This document shows positions 1 through 7,163 of a DNA stretch of 23,091 nucleotides, in pieces. Under the pieces are notes generated by a model. That model did not search any database. It had not been told where the DNA came from and saw only the letters and a list, made by a program, of their open reading frames with translations. The stretch is taken from the NCBI GenBank assembly GCA_045540315.1, contig JAZQHA010000108.1, positions 1 to 23,091 on the forward strand. The letters run 5' to 3'. Origin of the DNA: Acutalibacteraceae bacterium. GTDB taxonomy: Bacteria; Bacillota; Clostridia; Oscillospirales; Acutalibacteraceae. Position numbers and translations under genes: made by a program. How positions within the stretch are numbered: position 1 is the first letter of the stretch; the number at the start of each line of letters is the position of its first letter.

Positions 1-17
1 TTTATCATTTCCTTTCC

Positions 18-275
18 TTAACAGTCAACTCGTTTAATTGTATATTTATCCCAACTAAATTTAGGAACAATTTTTAATAAAGTTAAAGAATCTTTTATAC
101 TAAAATGCTGACAGTTTTCACAAAAGCATTTATATTCATAATCTTCGGTTAATGTTAAAACCATTTCCTCAGCGTTTTCCAAAGTGTCGCAAACACAGAT
201 TAAATCATTGCTAAATCGAGGTTCTCGATAGACTTTTAATCTATTTTTTTCATAAATAAGATATTTATTACACAT
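18..275 (-). CDS. Hypothetical small Cys-rich protein (85 aa; CVC...CFCENCQH pattern, possible Zn-binding)
   Basis: ORF with AAGGAGG RBS 6-7 nt upstream of ATG at 275; directly downstream of promoter copy P1; no recognisable family. Confidence 0.5.
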   Translation of the reverse strand: MCNKYLIYEKNRLKVYREPRFSNDLICVCDTLENAEEMVLTLTEDYEYKCFCENCQHFSIKDSLTLLKIVPKFSWDKYTIKRVDC

Positions 276-302
276 TGGTTTCCTCCTTAACTTTATATAT
301 AT

Positions 303-331
303 ATTATAACATATTTTTATAAAAAAATCAA
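303..331 (-). promoter_or_regulatory. Early promoter copy P1 (minus strand reads TTGATT-N17-TATAAT)
   Basis: rc of 303-331 = TTGATT + 17 nt + TATAAT; followed by conserved ATATATATAAAGTTAAGGAGG leader into gene 18..275. Confidence 0.6.
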
Positions 332-363
332 TAAAGCCTCGACTCGCTAGGAATCGAGGCTTT
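330..363 (-). terminator. Rho-independent terminator after gene 368..715
   Basis: GCCTCGA...TCGAGGC 7-bp stem (336-360) followed on minus strand by TTTATTGATTTTTTT. Confidence 0.6.
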
Positions 364-367
364 ATAA

Positions 368-715
368 TTACATCAAATCAACTTCATATTGAGCATAGTC
401 TTTGAATTCCATGTTTTCAACATAGTCATCGACAGTTTCATCATCAGCCTTGCGACTTCTAACCCAATCCCAAAAATGATTATCATAGCATTCTGGCATG
501 GATTTAAGTGCTTCATAAAGAGAATCTCCATACCAAGACCAGTTGTCAACACCACCTGCATCTAGTGCCATTAATTTCATCTGGTCTGCAATAAGGTCAA
601 TCATTTCACTTACTGGAACAGCAATATATTCCTCTTCTGGTTTAGGGTCAGAAAGAAAACGAATTTTGCACATAGGTTCAATTTCGCCAATAAAACTATC
701 TTCAGTGTGTTCCAT
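368..715 (-). CDS. Hypothetical acidic protein (115 aa, Asp/Glu-rich)
   Basis: ORF, GGAG RBS upstream of ATG 715, TAA stop; no family recognised. Confidence 0.5.
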   Translation of the reverse strand: MEHTEDSFIGEIEPMCKIRFLSDPKPEEEYIAVPVSEMIDLIADQMKLMALDAGGVDNWSWYGDSLYEALKSMPECYDNHFWDWVRSRKADDETVDDYVENMEFKDYAQYEVDLM

Positions 716-732
716 AATTACTCCTTATTATT

Positions 733-1137
733 CTAATAATTAGTCCACATATCATTTAAGACTTGGTTAGCAACCTTCATATCAAAATGCTTAGCCTTAC
801 AATCCGGCATTAAAGATTTCATAAAAGCACCTTTATTATTGGTAGGAATTGTCAAATCTTGAGTAATCCAATAACTAATAGCTTCCTTAATTTCATTATA
901 GTCACTTACAACTTTTGGAGCATACTCTTCAACAATTGCTAACTTAGTTTGATATTCAGTAAGTTTAGTTGCATACTGTTCGGTCTTAGGACAAGTATCA
1001 ACCATTTCTTGAACTGTCTTTTTATATTTAATTAAAACTTCATCGACCATCTGGTCAGTAATCATACTTCTAGATTTAGCACTAATAGATGCTTTTTCAA
1101 TAGAAGCACAAATATCTGAAAGAACCAGACGTCTCAT
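733..1137 (-). CDS. Hypothetical protein (134 aa). Possible N-terminal extension to ATG at 1189 through an in-frame TAG at 1147-1149
   Basis: ORF ends at TAG, with TAA 5 codons further on. An upstream in-frame ATG (1187-1189) has a strong AAGGAG RBS, whereas the annotated ATG at 1137 has no clear SD. Confidence 0.5.
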   Translation of the reverse strand: MRRLVLSDICASIEKASISAKSRSMITDQMVDEVLIKYKKTVQEMVDTCPKTEQYATKLTEYQTKLAIVEEYAPKVVSDYNEIKEAISYWITQDLTIPTNNKGAFMKSLMPDCKAKHFDMKVANQVLNDMWTNY

Positions 1138-1210
1138 TTTGTCGCCCTACTTTAAGGCGACATTACTATCTTCCTTAATTTTTTCGTAGGTCATTTTATT
1201 CTCCTTAATT

Positions 1211-1993
1211 TTATACATGAGAGAGTTTCTCTTCAGTCTCAGCAGAACGCACAAGACTAGAAGTAGTAAACACTCGATTAATCAAACCGCAGGTAAATAC
1301 ATTACCTTTACTAATGGCATCTTCGCAATGAGTAACATAGAGGTTAATTTCTTCTGCTCCAGCCGCATGAAGAGCTTCAGCAGCCCGCACAAAAGTATTA
1401 CCATAAGAGCAAATGTCATCAATAATAATAATTCGTTTGCCCTTAATATTCTCTACTCCCATAATATCCAGTCCCTCAATTTTCATAGTTTCCCAATTAC
1501 GCTTTTTGATGCCAAAAGCCTGAGGAATATTGGGGAACATTTCGCCATATCGTTTCTGCGCACCTTCATCGGGGAAGAACAGAGCTAGATTTTCTTTGCT
1601 ATAATTCATCAGCACATCTTCAATGAAGGACTTAGGAGACAGATTACGAACTCGGTCTAGCAGAGCTACACCAACATTACTATGAGCATCCCATACAGTT
1701 ACACGCTGAAAGTAAAGAGCATTGATATGATTGCAAAACATTTTTAAGGTAAAAACATCTCCAGGGTTCTTTACTCGGTCCATACGTGCGTGAGGCAAAT
1801 AAGGCATCACCAGGTAACAAGGATTTTTCTGATAAAAGCCACGGATACAAGCAACAGTGAAATACTCAGCATCACTTTCATATTTCCACATAATAGTGAT
1901 ATTAGTATTATCATCTACTGGGGTCAGCTTAATTTTCAGCTCGCCCGCAGAGAAATGCTCCTGCTCAATCTTTTCGCCATTAACAAAAATCAT
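1211..1993 (-). CDS. Ribose-phosphate pyrophosphokinase (PRPP synthetase, Prs)-family protein, 260 aa
   Basis: Prs signature blocks in order: FSAGELKIKL (cf. FSDGEVSVQI), PYLPHARMDR (cf. PYFGYARQDR), DAHS (cf. DLHA), and the PRPP-binding loop IIIIDDICSYGNTFVRAAEALHAAGA (cf. [25 protein letters not shown]). Confidence 0.8.
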   Translation of the reverse strand: MIFVNGEKIEQEHFSAGELKIKLTPVDDNTNITIMWKYESDAEYFTVACIRGFYQKNPCYLVMPYLPHARMDRVKNPGDVFTLKMFCNHINALYFQRVTVWDAHSNVGVALLDRVRNLSPKSFIEDVLMNYSKENLALFFPDEGAQKRYGEMFPNIPQAFGIKKRNWETMKIEGLDIMGVENIKGKRIIIIDDICSYGNTFVRAAEALHAAGAEEINLYVTHCEDAISKGNVFTCGLINRVFTTSSLVRSAETEEKLSHV

Positions 1994-2005
1994 ACCTTAC
2001 CTCCA

Positions 2006-2599
2006 TTAGATAATTTCAATCTGACACAGCTTCATAGCTTCAATTGCAGTCTTATGAGATTCGGGAGTTACGCAAGCACAGCAATCAGCCACCACGCGCA
2101 CAGGAACTTCGGGCAGGGTAGCCTTAGCCAGCATTGCATTGGACAGAACGCAAATACCAGTACACAGACCCATTAGTGTAATCTCAGCAACTTCGCCGGG
2201 CTGAGTGCCAGTCATATCATCAATGACATACAGCAGGTTTACCAGGTCCAGAGAACCAAAAGTAGGCTTACAGACGATGTGATCAGCAACGTAAGGGAAG
2301 TAAGAGTCAAAACCAAAATACTTATCACGAGTATCATAAATTGCCTCCTGGATTGCGGGAGCCAGTTCCCAACCATGAGTATTCTTGATACAATGGGCGA
2401 CCGGCAGATTCTTACCTTCCAGGGTTTCCATATAATCAGTATTGTGGGTATCTTTGGTTACCAGCAGAATAGTATCCTTATTAGCGCGGGCGCGAATCTG
2501 GTCAGCAACTTTATTCACGATTGCCTGTGCTTCGGGAGTGCCCAGGGCGCCATCAACAAAGTCATTCTGCATATCAACTACAATAAAAACATTTTTCAT
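2006..2599 (-). CDS. Isochorismatase/nicotinamidase (PncA-like) cysteine hydrolase family protein, 197 aa
   Basis: N-terminal VVDMQNDF motif, mid Lys (LLVTKD) and GLCTGICV catalytic-Cys motif typical of the Asp-Lys-Cys triad of the isochorismatase/PncA fold. Confidence 0.8.
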   Translation of the reverse strand: MKNVFIVVDMQNDFVDGALGTPEAQAIVNKVADQIRARANKDTILLVTKDTHNTDYMETLEGKNLPVAHCIKNTHGWELAPAIQEAIYDTRDKYFGFDSYFPYVADHIVCKPTFGSLDLVNLLYVIDDMTGTQPGEVAEITLMGLCTGICVLSNAMLAKATLPEVPVRVVADCCACVTPESHKTAIEAMKLCQIEII

Positions 2600-2632
2600 A
2601 ACACATTATTTCCTTTCTTATCTTATAAATAT

Positions 2633-2661
2633 ATTATAACATATATTTTTATAAAAATCAA
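2633..2661 (-). promoter_or_regulatory. Early promoter copy P2 (TTGATT-N17-TATAAT on minus strand)
   Basis: rc = TTGATT + tttataaaaatatatgt + TATAAT; conserved ATATTTATAAGATAAGAAAGG leader into gene 2006..2599. Confidence 0.6.
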
Positions 2662-2667
2662 TTAAGA

Positions 2668-2937
2668 TTAATGAGTCGTGTGATTATAAGGTTTTCCTCT
2701 TGAAATAACCTTATAATTAGTCCCATAAATTGGTTTTTCTGTGGTATCAATCCATTGAATACATCCTTCGATTGTTTCTTTATAACAATCCTCACAAGTC
2801 CAATTTGGGTCATCCCATTTATCTTCTCTGCGACATCCTGGTTCACATCCAAGAGCATCATCAATACTATTCATATAGCTTAATAATGCTTTCTTAATAT
2901 TTTTTAATTCATGAGCTTCTCCACTGATAGTAACCAT
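2668..2937 (-). CDS. Hypothetical Cys-rich protein (89 aa; GCEPGC...CEDC...C)
   Basis: ORF; its ATG overlaps the upstream gene's stop as TAATG. Confidence 0.5.
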   Translation of the reverse strand: MVTISGEAHELKNIKKALLSYMNSIDDALGCEPGCRREDKWDDPNWTCEDCYKETIEGCIQWIDTTEKPIYGTNYKVISRGKPYNHTTH

Positions 2938-3125
2938 TAATCCTCCGCAAATGAAAGAAAATTAACACTTTCTATTTCAAAATGGTCATCATCCATATCA
3001 GTACTCATTGCTAAAGATTGAAGACCAACAGAAAAGAAATCTTCTCCTAACTGTCGACCTTCATAATCATCTTCTGCATCAAGGATTCGAAGGCGAACTC
3101 TCGCCTCCATAATATACTCAGCCAT
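2937..3125 (-). CDS. Hypothetical small acidic protein (62 aa)
   Basis: ORF; its ATG overlaps the stop of 3125..3988 as TAATG. Confidence 0.45.
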   Translation of the reverse strand: MAEYIMEARVRLRILDAEDDYEGRQLGEDFFSVGLQSLAMSTDMDDDHFEIESVNFLSFAED

Positions 3126-3988
3126 TATTTAACCTCACTCTCAATGCCTTCATAGAAGGCAGGACTCTTAGGCAACCACCAGTCCAATTCGCCAGTTTTG
3201 TCATACTTATCCCACCGAGCAATAATATCTTCTACATATTCATATTCTTGATAAAATTGTTCCACATAAGGCCGTTCAACCCGGTCCGCATGATAATGAC
3301 CAAATAAGTAATATTTCCAATTAACACTATCTTTTAATTCATCAAGCCACACTTCCATAGATTTATCTACAGTAGACTGGTCAATACAATTAAGGAACAA
3401 ATCGATAGGCTCCCAGGAGAGAGGACAGGTGTGAGAAAGAATAAAATCAACAGATTCGCCTTGAACTTCTTTAATAATAGTATTCATTTCTGCGGCAGTC
3501 AGGCATTCATCCTTAAACCAACCACATTTCTTGGGATTTGCGGTTTCCGCTTCTTCTGGAGAATAGCCAGCCCGCGCAAGCCGATACCACTTATCAACAG
3601 AATAAGCACCGCCAATTACGAGAGCACTATATCCAAGTAAATCATAAATTTTACCATCAACAAAATACCGAATATTGGGGAAGGCAGGCTCCATCCATAC
3701 CTTATTATGAACATTCTCATCGCTTACTAAAAGCATACTTTTAATTAGCTCTGGCCGCTGTTCATGATTACCCCGAACGCAATAAATATGATAACCCATA
3801 GAGTTAAGAAGTTTTTTATGTTTATTATCAGTATTATTTAAGTAAAAATTCAAACCAGCATCACCAAGAATAACAACCATTGTTTCTTCGGGCTTATACT
3901 CAGGCATATTCCGTTGAATGTTGCCAATCCGACTAATAGTTGCTACACCACCATGGGTATCGCCAGTAAAAATTAAATGTTTAATCAT
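3125..3988 (-). CDS. Calcineurin-like metallophosphoesterase (PPP-family lambda-phosphatase/ApaH-like), 287 aa
   Basis: GDTHG, GDAG(LNF) and VRGNHEQ motifs in the canonical order of PPP phosphatases (lambda PPase has VRGNHEQ). Confidence 0.8.
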   Translation of the reverse strand: MIKHLIFTGDTHGGVATISRIGNIQRNMPEYKPEETMVVILGDAGLNFYLNNTDNKHKKLLNSMGYHIYCVRGNHEQRPELIKSMLLVSDENVHNKVWMEPAFPNIRYFVDGKIYDLLGYSALVIGGAYSVDKWYRLARAGYSPEEAETANPKKCGWFKDECLTAAEMNTIIKEVQGESVDFILSHTCPLSWEPIDLFLNCIDQSTVDKSMEVWLDELKDSVNWKYYLFGHYHADRVERPYVEQFYQEYEYVEDIIARWDKYDKTGELDWWLPKSPAFYEGIESEVK

Positions 3989-4014
3989 ATTTATTCCCTC
4001 ACTTTCTTATAAAT

Positions 4015-4043
4015 ATTATAACATATTTTTATAAAAAAATCAA
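4015..4043 (-). promoter_or_regulatory. Early promoter copy P3 (TTGATT-N17-TATAAT)
   Basis: rc = TTGATT + tttttataaaaatatgt + TATAAT; ATTTATAAGAAAGTGAGGG leader into gene 3125..3988. Confidence 0.6.
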
Positions 4044-4077
4044 AAATAGCTCCTTAACTCTAAGTTAAGGAGCTATA
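4042..4077 (-). terminator. Rho-independent terminator after gene 4065..4424
   Basis: Perfect 12-bp inverted repeat TAGCTCCTTAAC/GTTAAGGAGCTA (4047-4075) followed on minus strand by TTTTTGATTTTTTT. Confidence 0.65.
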
Positions 4078-4424
4078 TCATCATAGCCATGTGGATACCA
4101 ATCCACACCATGTTCATCATAATCATGTTGAATGTTTAAATCAGGATGTCTGAAAAGAATAGGCTCTGGAGGATGTTTAGACAAAGTTTCCTTCAGTAAC
4201 TCAGTAAGTCTATTTAACTCTTCCTCCGTTGGCTTTTTCATTTCAAAAGGTGTATTATTCTTTATATAAAGTTTAATAGCTTGTTTAATTAAACAACCAT
4301 CATCATACATTACACATTTATCAGAACAATCAATATTAGCATAATGAGATGTGCTTTTAAAAGGGCAAGTTTTAATCATAAATTTCCCTCCGCACACTCT
4401 TTTCCATGATGCGATATTGAACAT
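4065..4424 (-). CDS. Hypothetical protein with Cys-rich N-terminus (119 aa)
   Basis: ORF, TAA stop inside terminator hairpin; start overlaps end of 4372..5187. Confidence 0.5.
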   Translation of the reverse strand: MFNIASWKRVCGGKFMIKTCPFKSTSHYANIDCSDKCVMYDDGCLIKQAIKLYIKNNTPFEMKKPTEEELNRLTELLKETLSKHPPEPILFRHPDLNIQHDYDEHGVDWYPHGYDDIAP

Positions 4425-5187
4425 CTCTCATTAGAGCGATAGTGTCTTCATTTTCAGTATTATCATACTTAGTGCAAAATTCGTCTCGAACTTTTCTGGC
4501 TTCAGCTAGGCTCCACTCAGACATAGCAACGGCTTCTTCAACCTTTAAACCATGTCGTTTCATCATCTTGAGGTAATAAGGCTCAAAAGGTTCGTGAATA
4601 CAGTTCCAGTAGGTTTCACCGGCCGCATACTTAATCATTGCGTGACGCACTCTCTCTTGGTGAGAAAGCTGCTTGCCGTCATAACCAAACTCATCGATGA
4701 TATGCTGTTTTGCTGGGTAGCGATGCTGTAGTGCATGGTTCTTTTCAGCACACATACCGCACATTGCCTGCATTACTCGATAAGGGTTTAAGTGTGCGAT
4801 TTCCTCTCTATGAGATACAAGAATATCCCAATCATCCTTATACATAGGGTTAATGATAAAATAATCTGTAAAAAGAATTTCGAGGAAGTTCATATTGCCT
4901 TTGCGGAAAGTTTCAATATAAAGACGGATGTCTTTAAGGTCAATATGTTCTTCATTCTCGCGCACATAAGTAGTAGAAATCGGCTTCTCGTTCATAGCCA
5001 ATTCCTTAAAAGAAGGAGTGACAATAAGTTTGGTATCAATGTCACTACCCTCAGTATCTAGTCCATAGTTCTGACTACCCTGTAAGAAAATACCTACAAT
5101 TCGTTCTTCTGGAAACATTGTTAATGCTTCAGTATAATGAGCTGTTAAGCCAGCCCAAATCTTCTGCTCTCTATCCAAATTAGCCAC
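4372..5187 (-). CDS. Pol-beta superfamily nucleotidyltransferase (GS-x10-DxD), 271 aa
   Basis: QGSQNYGLDTEGSDIDTKLIV matches hG[GS]x9-13Dh[DE]h with downstream acidic IDLKDI. Apparent GTG start overlaps the lipoprotein gene stop, so the start is uncertain. Confidence 0.6.
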   Translation of the reverse strand: MANLDREQKIWAGLTAHYTEALTMFPEERIVGIFLQGSQNYGLDTEGSDIDTKLIVTPSFKELAMNEKPISTTYVRENEEHIDLKDIRLYIETFRKGNMNFLEILFTDYFIINPMYKDDWDILVSHREEIAHLNPYRVMQAMCGMCAEKNHALQHRYPAKQHIIDEFGYDGKQLSHQERVRHAMIKYAAGETYWNCIHEPFEPYYLKMMKRHGLKVEEAVAMSEWSLAEARKVRDEFCTKYDNTENEDTIALMRDVQYRIMEKSVRREIYD

Positions 5188-5530
5188 TCCTTTCTAATTT
5201 ATATCTTACTTCACCAGTATTATAGGTAATAGTAATATATTCCATCTGGATAGTTTCACCGATTCTATTTTCATAATATTCGTATAATTCCTTACTATCA
5301 ATAGAAGCAGTGACACCATTATATTCTACATAAATATCATAATCAGCCGGAATGTGCTGAAATGTTATGATTTTACCAACCATCATAGGTTGATTGCGAG
5401 GGGGGTCATAATCCACCGAAGTGACGATTGCATCTACCAATTCAATTTCTCTGGAAACTTCTTTGGCAATATGACAGCCAGTTAGTAGCAAAGCTACAAC
5501 TAACAGCAATAAACAAATTTTAGTCTTCAT
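5180..5530 (-). CDS. Lipoprotein (signal peptide + lipobox LLTGC), 116 aa
   Basis: MKTKICLLLLVVALLLTGC N-terminus; AAGGAGG RBS 6 nt before ATG. Confidence 0.65.
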   Translation of the reverse strand: MKTKICLLLLVVALLLTGCHIAKEVSREIELVDAIVTSVDYDPPRNQPMMVGKIITFQHIPADYDIYVEYNGVTASIDSKELYEYYENRIGETIQMEYITITYNTGEVRYKLERSG

Positions 5531-5546
5531 AGAGTCCTCCTTACCC

Positions 5547-5741
5547 TTATATGAAAAGTAAACCTACAACAGTTAGTGCAAGAAAAATAAAACAAGTTAT
5601 ACTTGAATCTTCTGTCATTGCAAAACAGAACCGTTTAATAGGATGATTAGTTAATTCTGCAATTAACCAGGCTGTACAAAACATCATTGCCGTAAAAAAA
5701 GAAATAATTGTCATTCCATAAAATATATTAACAAGTACCAT
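5547..5741 (-). CDS. Small membrane protein (2 predicted TM helices, 64 aa)
   Basis: Two long hydrophobic stretches; same strand and operon. Confidence 0.45.
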   Translation of the reverse strand: MVLVNIFYGMTIISFFTAMMFCTAWLIAELTNHPIKRFCFAMTEDSSITCFIFLALTVVGLLFI

Positions 5742-5764
5742 ATTTTTATTTCCTTTTATTTATT

Positions 5765-5977
5765 TTAGAACAACAGTGTGAAACCGAACAAGCCAATTAA
5801 GGCGCCAAAAGCAAGGATAAACAATCCAGCAACGATAGGAATGATAATCATTGTCATGGCAATTTTAAATAAAACTTCTGTAAAATCAAAGAAAATATCA
5901 AAGAACATCAGAAGGAAAGCCAGAAATAACAATGCCACGCCAAGTATAAAAGAAAGTGCTCCAATTGCAAAAAGCAT
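5765..5977 (-). CDS. Small highly hydrophobic membrane protein (70 aa)
   Basis: Almost entirely hydrophobic residues (LFAIGALSFILGVALLFLAFLLMFF...). Confidence 0.45.
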   Translation of the reverse strand: MLFAIGALSFILGVALLFLAFLLMFFDIFFDFTEVLFKIAMTMIIIPIVAGLFILAFGALIGLFGFTLLF

Positions 5978-5980
5978 TTT

Positions 5981-6283
5981 TTAATCCTCCTCATCACAGA
6001 GCGTCAATCCCATCTGAAAAGTGCGCCCGCAGTAAAACAATCTCAAACCTATACCTTCATTAGTAAAGTAAATGTCTGTATCTTGTTCCCAGCCATTAGC
6101 CAGACAATCGTTATATTCATATCCCATTGCTTCGAGAATATCAATAACATTCTCGGGACACAAATCCTCTTTGGTTAAATCTACAGTTTCAATATATCCA
6201 GCTTTTAATTCGTTAATCTTTCTTTCAAAGAAAGCTGTCCAATGCGGTTTTTCCCAATCTCGCAAATTCCATTCGCCTCTCAT
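5981..6283 (-). CDS. Hypothetical protein (about 100 aa; start placed at MRGEW with GGAG RBS)
   Basis: ORF 5981..6307. The internal ATG at 6283 is preceded by AAAGGAGATAAT, so it is preferred as the start. Confidence 0.45.
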   Translation of the reverse strand: MRGEWNLRDWEKPHWTAFFERKINELKAGYIETVDLTKEDLCPENVIDILEAMGYEYNDCLANGWEQDTDIYFTNEGIGLRLFYCGRTFQMGLTLCDEED

Positions 6284-6495: not shown

Positions 6496-6765
6496 CTAAT
6501 TATCCTCCCATTTTCTTCCAATAGTACAGAGCTTATAAAACCAATAAAGGCAAGCCCAAGGTCCTGCAATAATATGAGCTAAAATGGTTAATACAATACA
6601 TCCAAACCAATTGACATGAACATTATTATAAATTACGATTGGATTAATCCATTGAAGGCCAACTTTATCACCATTCTCTAGCGATACTGTCATTATAAAC
6701 AGATGAATCAAGCTAGTAGCAAATGTATATATCATAAATGGTAACATTAAAATACTTCCTTCCAA
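6496..6765 (-). CDS. Hypothetical membrane protein (89 aa, 2-3 TM)
   Basis: Hydrophobic segments; ORF ends at TAG. Confidence 0.4.
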   Translation of the reverse strand: MEGSILMLPFMIYTFATSLIHLFIMTVSLENGDKVGLQWINPIVIYNNVHVNWFGCIVLTILAHIIAGPWACLYWFYKLCTIGRKWEDN

Positions 6766-7163
6766 CCATTGCGCTCGATAATGGCACGCATATTAGCCAC
6801 GCCAACAGGATTAAAGCTATGAATACGGAAAGCACATTTAACCTTATATCCATGATGTGCTCGATATTCCAAATAATTTAGAATATTGATATAATCGCCA
6901 CCATCGGGGGCATAAATACCGGCATCGTGATCAAGGTCAATGATATCAATGTGCTGAAGCTTTTCAACGCAAACACCATGTTCCCAACGCTCGCACCAAG
7001 AACTTCTCTCAGATTCTTCAATTGCTCTCTTGGCTTCATTGACACTATTGGCAATCATATATACTTCCTCAGGACGATTGGGCGGGTTGCGCAGGTCATC
7101 AACCCAAAGACAAAGAGTCTTATCATTCTTATTCATCGCTATTATCCACTCCTTTAAAACCAA
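6747..7163 (-). CDS. Hypothetical protein, 138 aa; acidic-residue pattern (DD...IIDLDHD...K) suggestive of a flavodoxin/receiver-like fold
   Basis: ORF; pattern LCLWVDD / IIDLDHDAG / KVKCAFRIHSFNP spaced like REC-domain landmarks; weak inference. Confidence 0.45.
   Translation of the reverse strand: MVLKEWIIAMNKNDKTLCLWVDDLRNPPNRPEEVYMIANSVNEAKRAIEESERSSWCERWEHGVCVEKLQHIDIIDLDHDAGIYAPDGGDYINILNYLEYRAHHGYKVKCAFRIHSFNPVGVANMRAIIERNGWKEVF

Follow-up and report, generated by a model that had tools for sequence, protein, structure and literature searches.

Which pathway, if any, is served by a nicotinamidase-like gene and a ribose-phosphate pyrophosphokinase (Prs)-like gene that lie side by side in a phage sequence? 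The question is raised by a 23,091-bp contig assigned to an Acutalibacteraceae bacterium (GenBank JAZQHA010000108.1), which was analysed as a whole and is called the window here. Between positions 1211 and 2599, its minus strand encodes a 197-aa PncA-like protein and, after a gap of 12 nt, a 260-aa Prs-like protein. An earlier note, made from the sequence alone, had located both open reading frames (ORFs), which were found exactly there, and had read them as a candidate nicotinamide adenine dinucleotide (NAD+) salvage or reconstitution module, naming both pyrophosphorylation of ADP-ribose (ADPR) and a supply of phosphoribosyl pyrophosphate (PRPP). This reading is supported, and the route appears more likely to run through ADPR-pyrophosphate (ADPR-PP) than through PRPP.

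Depletion of NAD+ is among the commonest antiviral strategies of bacteria. NARP1, NARP2 and NARP3 are known phage answers to it, and the module discussed here points to a further, apparently undescribed one. NARP1 consists of Adps and Namat (Osterman et al., bioRxiv 10.1101/2024.02.11.579819). We consider it rather probable that the PncA-like and Adps-like proteins of the window are the front half of a four-enzyme, deamidated variant of NARP1, which would rebuild NAD+ by way of nicotinate.

The two proteins of the window

The 197-aa protein is well supported as a PncA-type nicotinamidase. The two stretches in which an Asp-Lys-Cys isochorismatase/PncA signature had been recognized, VVDMQNDF and GLCTGICV, are residues 7-14 and 144-151. 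Among 91 unique phage homologs with 36-91% identity, the triad D9, K111 and C150 is invariant, and so are the metal ligands D50, H52 and H69, which correspond to Asp52, His54 and His71 of P. horikoshii PncA. In the alignment with solved nicotinamidases, the catalytic Asp, the metal-binding Asp-x-His and the histidine of the HC(I/V)xNTxG motif all match. An Asp-His-His metal site is typical of nicotinamidases among isochorismatase-family enzymes. The closest solved structures by sequence are nicotinamidases as well, from P. horikoshii (1ILW/1IM5, 5e-12), M. tuberculosis (3PL1) and yeast (Pnc1, 2H0R). The AlphaFold2 model (pLDDT 79, with loops of low confidence near residues 55-80 and 105-120) has 1ILW as its top Foldseek match in the PDB, followed by many PncA structures. 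The fold search confirms the isochorismatase-like fold, at TM values of ~0.6 that separate nicotinamidases weakly from other cysteine hydrolases.

With the NCBIfam PncA equivalog NF008623, the protein reaches 33.3 of the 174 bits required, and the match is restricted to residues 2-57. Because it falls below this cut-off, we regard it as a member of a divergent phage subfamily; it belongs to PHROG 19305. The gene is carried by only 7 of 50,697 phage records, all from uncultured gut phages; if the variant is real, this would account for its having been overlooked.

The 260-aa protein is equally well supported, by sequence comparison, as a member of the phage Adps clade and not an ordinary Prs. 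The PRPP-binding loop noticed before is a phosphoribosyltransferase loop, IIIIDDICSYGNTF, at residues 188-201. Pfam Pribosyltran is matched at 3.8e-9, with Pribosyl_synth and Pribosyltran_N below their cut-offs. The match to PHROG 619, 'ribose-phosphate pyrophosphokinase', reaches 224 bits (3.5e-66). Against the TIGR01251 Prs model the protein scores 81.6 bits (cut-off 113), and it stays far under the cut-off of every Prs equivalog model. Among the best matches in the phage records of the INPHARED collection are the Adps proteins of SPbetaL1 and FADO, with 38% and 37% identity over 95-100% of the length; both have demonstrated activity (bioRxiv 10.1101/2024.02.11.579819). In a neighbour-joining (distance) tree of 143 Adps-like proteins, with E. 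coli Prs as the single Prs outgroup, the 260-aa protein is nested in the Namat-linked Adps radiation, and E. coli Prs sits on a long branch. The comparison with Prs and Adps thus agrees with the earlier suggestion of a possible ADP-ribose pyrophosphokinase.

The residue-level evidence points in the same direction. The Adps-family motifs K.RNW and DDICSYGNT are present, whereas Prs has DDMIDTGGT, and K163 in GIKKRNW is the counterpart of the catalytic lysine (K162 in SPbetaL1 Adps, K197 in B. subtilis Prs). The protein had correctly been described as shorter than Prs, but not by the ~60 C-terminal residues proposed then: in comparison with E. coli Prs (315 aa), ~26 residues of the N-terminal region and ~30 C-terminal residues are missing. 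The shortness is common to the whole Adps family, which has a median length of 275 aa. A sequence search of the PDB gave no Adps structure, and the Adps structure is described as unresolved in the literature (PMC12774641). A Namat homolog is found within ~10 genes for 97% of the Adps clade (bioRxiv 10.1101/2024.02.11.579819).

The NAD island in relatives of the window

The transferase and NAD synthase genes of the proposed variant are seen in relatives. The window ends 1.2 kb, or three genes, downstream of the Adps-like gene. The NAD island is truncated at this left end, and the transferase and NadE are not visible here because the assembly ends there. In the closest relative, a 146.8-kb contig (L025) with a 93% identical Adps, the sequence is syntenic with the window minus strand from the major vault protein (MVP)-like gene on. 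Downstream of a gp5.9-like gene that is also present in the window (Table 1), this contig encodes a NadM-type NMNAT-like protein, a 485-aa Nampt-family protein at 12980-14437, a nucleoside-deoxyribosyltransferase-like protein, a Macro-domain protein, an ammonia-dependent NadE and a NADAR protein. Two further relatives, L191 and L193, with Adps 90% and 82% identical, have the same NAD island. In the relatives with 82-93% identical Adps, the Namat-like gene lies 2-4 kb, or 4-7 genes, downstream, in agreement with the earlier expectation that a NAMPT-like partner would be located outside the window. The relatives were recovered with alignment queries; a search with the single Adps-like protein gave none.

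Deletion of Namat from this phage was considered and rejected, since the contig simply ends and three relatives have the gene farther downstream. Inside the NAD island, the nucleoside 2-deoxyribosyltransferase-like gene (L025:14437-14841) and the NADAR gene (16273-16719) are conserved. Their products may process further NAD- or ADPR-derived molecules.

Distribution of the module

PncA, Adps, a Namat-like transferase and NadE form a single same-strand module at ~150 loci on gut-phage contigs and in metagenome-assembled genomes (MAGs) of Clostridia. The module is conserved between large gut phages and MAGs of Lachnospiraceae, Oscillospiraceae and related Clostridia. Each of our surveys comprised 80 loci, the IMG/VR sets being the 80 loci nearest to the query, and module genes were sought within 8 kb. 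In IMG/VR and in uncultured gut-phage records, homologs of the PncA-like protein are encoded either in PncA-Adps-Namat-like operons or beside NadE without Adps and Namat, and NadE accompanies PncA at nearly every locus. In phAss-1, the PncA-Adps-Namat-like genes are annotated as nicotinamidase, Prs and Nampt.

The presence of PncA and NadE goes along with a single position of the transferase. In the crystal structure of SPbetaL1 Namat, Asp215 hydrogen-bonds nicotinamide, and the D215A exchange lowers NAD+ formation 8-fold (PMC12774641). In human NAMPT, base specificity is set by the equivalent residue, Asp219 (PMC7096376). All PncA-linked Namat homologs have Ser or Ala instead of Asp215. With the Namat-like protein of the nearest relative as the IMG/VR query, Ser or Ala occupies this position at all 80 loci, and PncA, Adps and NadE are on the same strand at 73 of them. 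A control set consisted of the loci nearest to SPbetaL1 Namat. Here, Asp is found at 61 of 80 loci, all of which have Adps (61/61) and none of which has PncA (0/61) or NadE (0/61), whereas PncA and NadE are present at the Ser/Ala loci of the same set without exception (19/19). In GTDB, the PncA-Adps-Namat(Ala/Ser)-NadE module is contiguous at 63 of the 72 loci with a readable Asp215 position, and this position is always Ser or Ala. Altogether, Asp215 is retained at none of ~170 loci with PncA and NadE, and at all 61 loci without them. In the lineage of the window, the Namat-like partner has Ser at the Asp215 position in four of four relatives (SF[ND]KTSTI).

Most of the GTDB modules come from gut MAGs (Lachnospiraceae, Oscillospiraceae, Ruminococcus and Acutalibacteraceae), and two come from cultured strains. 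Dysosmobacter segnis BX15 (L240, 387.8-kb contig) and Hominicoprocola fusiformis CLA-AA-H269 (L246, 164-kb contig) have contiguous modules of the Ala type with identical spacing, which are probably located on a resident large phage or prophage. The two strains are possible experimental entry points.

A different arrangement is seen on a viral contig (L009:5558-9568), which encodes a Nudix-NrtR-NMNAT fusion, PncA, a true PncB (NAPRTase_N and NAPRTase) and NadE, and thus a complete Preiss-Handler set. The location of PncA beside true PncB, NMNAT and NadE on this contig suggests that the PncA family is used wherever the base is nicotinate.

The nicotinamide pocket of the transferase

In a comparison of 39 Asp-type with 88 Ser/Ala-type sequences, five of the seven residues of the nicotinamide pocket are invariant in both groups, and only Asp215 and Ala242 switch, the latter to Ser in 88 of 88 Ser/Ala-type sequences. 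Gly213 is Lys or Asn in the Ser/Ala type, and the ribose- and phosphate-binding residues are all unchanged. Among 491 positions, 22 discriminate between the groups, and two of these are in the seven-residue pocket (p ~0.03, a hand estimate by binomial approximation). The D219S mutant of NAMPT accepts nicotinic acid. A profile-profile comparison of the Namat homologs with phage PncB aligned only the C-terminal part and did not cover the Asp215 position.

A possible route to NAD+ through nicotinate

The module could operate as follows. NADase defence effectors would cleave NAD+ to nicotinamide and ADPR. PncA would convert nicotinamide to nicotinate and ammonia, and Adps would convert ADPR and ATP to ADPR-PP. 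The Ser/Ala transferase would then join nicotinate and ADPR-PP directly to nicotinate adenine dinucleotide (NaAD), which NadE would amidate to NAD+, possibly with the ammonia released by PncA. The identities of the enzymes are well supported by their sequences, and the substrates of the pathway, those of the NaAD step above all, are inferred. The transferase is proposed to use nicotinate because the nicotinamide-binding Asp215 is Ser or Ala, and because PncA and NadE are part of the module. The prediction is that the natural change of Asp to Ser or Ala switches Namat from nicotinamide to nicotinate. If so, the transferase should depend on a nicotinamidase for the step before it and on an NAD synthase for the step after it, and it would catalyse a new enzymatic reaction. 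One may speculate that routing through nicotinate is favoured by fast host deamidation of nicotinamide, by retention of the charged base in the cell, or by the niacin supply in the gut.

The more general proposal is that the PncA-linked Ser/Ala Namat homologs are nicotinate ADP-ribosyltransferases and that, with PncA, Adps and NadE, they constitute a fourth phage NAD+ reconstitution pathway, widely distributed among phages of gut Clostridia and missing from cultured model phages. This we put forward tentatively, as quite possible but somewhat short of probable.

Several observations weigh against the nicotinate route. A tblastn search of the entire contig gave no Nampt or Namat homolog. In the searchable literature, there is no report of a reaction between nicotinate and ADPR-PP. 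The lineage of the window has an NMNAT-like gene, which would be superfluous to a direct synthesis of NaAD. The adenine clamp of the transferase is partly altered in the Ser/Ala type, with Phe392 kept, Tyr396 changed to Val or Pro, Arg40 changed to Met in many sequences, and an insertion, and this could mean weaker use of ADPR-PP. Finally, on the Adps tree the Ser/Ala modules group as one clade, so that their link to PncA and NadE may go back to a single ancestral event and reflect long-term maintenance, not repeated convergence.

Alternative explanations

The main alternative is a PRPP-based booster of the Preiss-Handler route. The Prs-like protein would make PRPP, PncA would make nicotinate, and the Ser/Ala Nampt-like protein would be a nicotinate phosphoribosyltransferase that forms nicotinate mononucleotide (NaMN). 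The phage NMNAT-like protein or host NadD would then make NaAD, and NadE would make NAD+. A Francisella-type order, in which NadE turns NaMN into nicotinamide mononucleotide before the NMNAT step, is possible as well. In favour of this scheme, the lineage of the window has an NMNAT-like gene of the NadM type that adjoins the Nampt-like gene. Phage clusters with PncA, true PncB, NMNAT and NadE exist, and pncB-nadD-nadE clusters have been reported in gut jumbo phages (PMC11662467). SPbetaL1 Namat still accepts PRPP in vitro (PMC12774641), and the partly altered adenine clamp of the Ser/Ala type also speaks for PRPP. Nevertheless, we consider the PRPP scheme unlikely. The 260-aa protein is inside the Adps clade and keeps the Adps loop instead of the DTGGT of Prs. 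SPbetaL1 Adps was reported to be without Prs activity (bioRxiv 10.1101/2024.02.11.579819). Adps is kept in nearly all Ser/Ala modules, with its loop retained and no reversion to DTGGT, whereas an NMNAT-like gene is undetected within 8 kb in most of them. Macro-domain genes, which are frequent in Ser/Ala modules, point towards the handling of ADPR.

In contrast to both schemes, the Namat-like protein could still join nicotinamide and ADPR-PP as in ordinary NARP1, with PncA and NadE as an independent side branch that speeds up host Preiss-Handler salvage of surplus nicotinamide. Adps and Namat-like genes do always occur together, and PncA and NadE are found in phages without Adps and Namat (L007, L009, L011-L014). 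However, the separation of the loci by Asp215 (kept at 0/~170 with PncA and NadE, at 61/61 without) would then be hard to understand, as would the loss of a residue whose exchange in D215A drops the nicotinamide-dependent activity 8-fold (PMC12774641). Moreover, Namat would face competition for nicotinamide from a nicotinamidase of the same operon. An independent side branch is thus quite improbable.

A further alternative is that the 197-aa protein is an isochorismatase-family hydrolase that acts on something other than nicotinamide, such as an immune signal with an amide or ester group, and is linked to the NAD genes only indirectly. This would fit the low equivalog score, the fold search without a clean split from other cysteine hydrolases, and a PHROG to which no function is assigned, but is very improbable in view of the invariant Asp-His-His site and HC(I/V)xNTxG motif, the lead of nicotinamidases in both sequence and structure matches, and the tight and wide linkage of the gene to NadE. 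NARP3, which consists of PnuC and NadR and is unrelated, was ruled out as an explanation.

Comparison with known systems

The proposed nicotinate pathway is most similar to NARP1 and to NARP1-AP, which is NARP1 with the additional Macro phosphatase Adpp (10.64898/2026.01.28.702374). As in these systems, a phage encodes an Adps-clade enzyme, and the relatives of the window add a Nampt-family transferase and often a Macro-domain protein in a same-strand block. The presumed role is also the same as that of NARP1, namely to restore NAD+ from what NADase defences leave behind. Unlike NARP1, the module includes a nicotinamidase and an NAD synthase as well, and in its transferase Asp215 has given way to Ser or Ala, and Ala242 to Ser. 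A further difference to NARP1, in the lineage of the window, is the distance of 2-4 kb between Adps and the transferase, which belong to different transcription units. As far as they are searchable, the NARP1, NARP1-AP and RyDEP-extension papers mention neither nicotinamidase nor NadE.

With the bacterial Preiss-Handler pathway (PncA, PncB, NadD, NadE), the module shares the PncA-type start, the ammonia-dependent NadE at the end, and nicotinate as the base. In contrast to that pathway, Adps and the Nampt-family enzyme appear to stand in for PncB and NadD; a true PncB is seen only in some other phage loci, such as L009.

NARP2 consists of Nampt and a bifunctional Nmnat and uses nicotinamide and PRPP, and NARP3 imports nicotinamide riboside (PMC13464706 for NARP3). 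As proposed for the module, NARP2 and NARP3 are phage pathways that restore NAD+, and an NMNAT-like gene is also present in the relatives of the window, but both systems do without Adps, PncA and NadE.

A catalogue of gut jumbo phages (Microbiome 2024, PMC11662467), which operates at the KEGG level and covers phages of >200 kb, includes clusters for NAD salvage and the Preiss-Handler pathway, and also names phage pncA and NAMPT genes. The similarity lies in gut phages with clustered genes for NAD salvage or the Preiss-Handler pathway. Adps is not described there, and neither are the PncA-Adps-Namat-NadE module and the change at Asp215. Targeted literature searches gave no account of a nicotinamidase combined with NARP1 in phages, or of Namat combined with NadE or nicotinic acid. 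The PncA-Adps-Namat(Ser/Ala)-NadE module is thus apparently undescribed.

Operon structure and transcription signals

In the window, the PncA-like, Adps-like, YqeY-like and gp5.9-like genes appear to form one four-gene operon driven by a host-type promoter (Table 1). The assignment to one operon is based on the promoter, the 12-nt gap between the PncA-like and Adps-like ORFs, and the terminator at the end. No terminator was predicted between positions 2599 and 368, and the PncA-like and Adps-like ORFs are each preceded by their own ribosome-binding site (GGAGG/AAGGA). Co-transcription from a separate consensus promoter had been suggested in the earlier note, and the sequence agrees with it. 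The activity of this promoter and its 'early' timing are inferred.

Table 1. Positions of the operon elements and of other genes in the window
Feature	Position	Strand	Details
Intrinsic terminator, operon end	331-365	-	15-bp stem with 6 GC pairs, then T-run
T7 gp5.9-like RecBCD-inhibitor homolog	368-715	-	115 aa; Pfam Phage_T7_Gp5_9 3.2e-10, above cut-off
YqeY-like gene	721-1194	-	Pfam YqeY 1.2e-6; 134 aa from 1137 under code 11
Adps-type Prs homolog	1211-1993	-	260 aa; PHROG 619 3.5e-66
PncA-type nicotinamidase, first operon gene	2006-2599	-	197 aa; Pfam Isochorismatase 3.2e-21
Putative sigma-70-type operon promoter	2633-2661	-	TTGATT, 17 nt, extended TG, TGnTATAAT; consensus match
Calcineurin-like metallophosphoesterase	3125-3988	-	
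RlaP/pol-beta-type nucleotidyltransferase	4372-5187	-	
cREC_REC (cyclic-phosphate processing receiver) domain protein	6747-7163	-	
Vault-protein-like ORF	7871-10399	-	842 aa; Major Vault Protein shoulder domain 9.4e-19, Vault_3 2e-9
Tail-fibre N-terminal domain protein	10969-11325	+	

Three further, near-identical copies of the operon promoter lie at 303-331, 4015-4043 and 7806-7834. All four are on the minus strand, and none was expected from 100 shuffles. The copies have the shape TTGATT-N14/15-TGTTATAAT and mark off transcription units within the minus-strand block. Strong terminators at 365-331 and 4076-4046 each precede one of the four. In the lineage of the window, Adps and the transferase belong to separate units.

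The earlier note had pointed to neighbours that look like anti-defence genes, and the gp5.9-like RecBCD-inhibitor homolog in the same operon fits this description. Its position is kept in L025, L191 and L193. For the YqeY-like gene, we know of no connection to NAD. A megablast search of window positions 1-6000 against the 50,697 phage records gave no match. Exact look-ups of the Adps-like and PncA-like proteins in a contig index, and of a 48-mer in IMG/VR, were negative as well.

Possible read-through of TAG codons

There are signs in the sequence of TAG read-through, similar to genetic code 15, in the window. The YqeY-like product would have 158 aa if two in-frame TAG codons (1147-1149 and 733-735, minus strand) are read through. 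Identity to the corresponding product of L025, annotated with 158 aa, is 95.6%. One TAG is at codon 16, and the 15 codons before it differ from those of L025 by synonymous changes only. The stop under code 11 is also TAG; L025 has Glu there, and its source annotation reads through TAG. No tRNA genes were found in the window.

Elsewhere in the window, translation of TAG as a sense codon fuses or fills ORFs in the gene-poor region at 20.7-22.9 kb (20745-22861). Signs of read-through are also seen at 15287-16702 (+) and 18735-19946 (+). A more distantly related phage, phAss-1, uses code 15 and has a tRNA-Sup-CTA.

Other genes in the window

Upstream of the operon, the minus-strand block contains genes for a calcineurin-like metallophosphoesterase, an RlaP/pol-beta-type nucleotidyltransferase and a cREC_REC domain protein. 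The plus-strand block starts with the gene for the tail-fibre N-terminal domain protein and extends to ~19946. It is not shared with L025, the similarity to which ends at window position 10479. Its large ORFs of 458, 820, 301 and 488 aa have no family match and probably encode receptor-binding or tail proteins.

A vault-protein-like gene is unusual for a phage. The 842-aa vault-like ORF of the minus-strand block has a GC content of ~0.47, compared to ~0.36 around it, and is kept in L025, L191 and L193.

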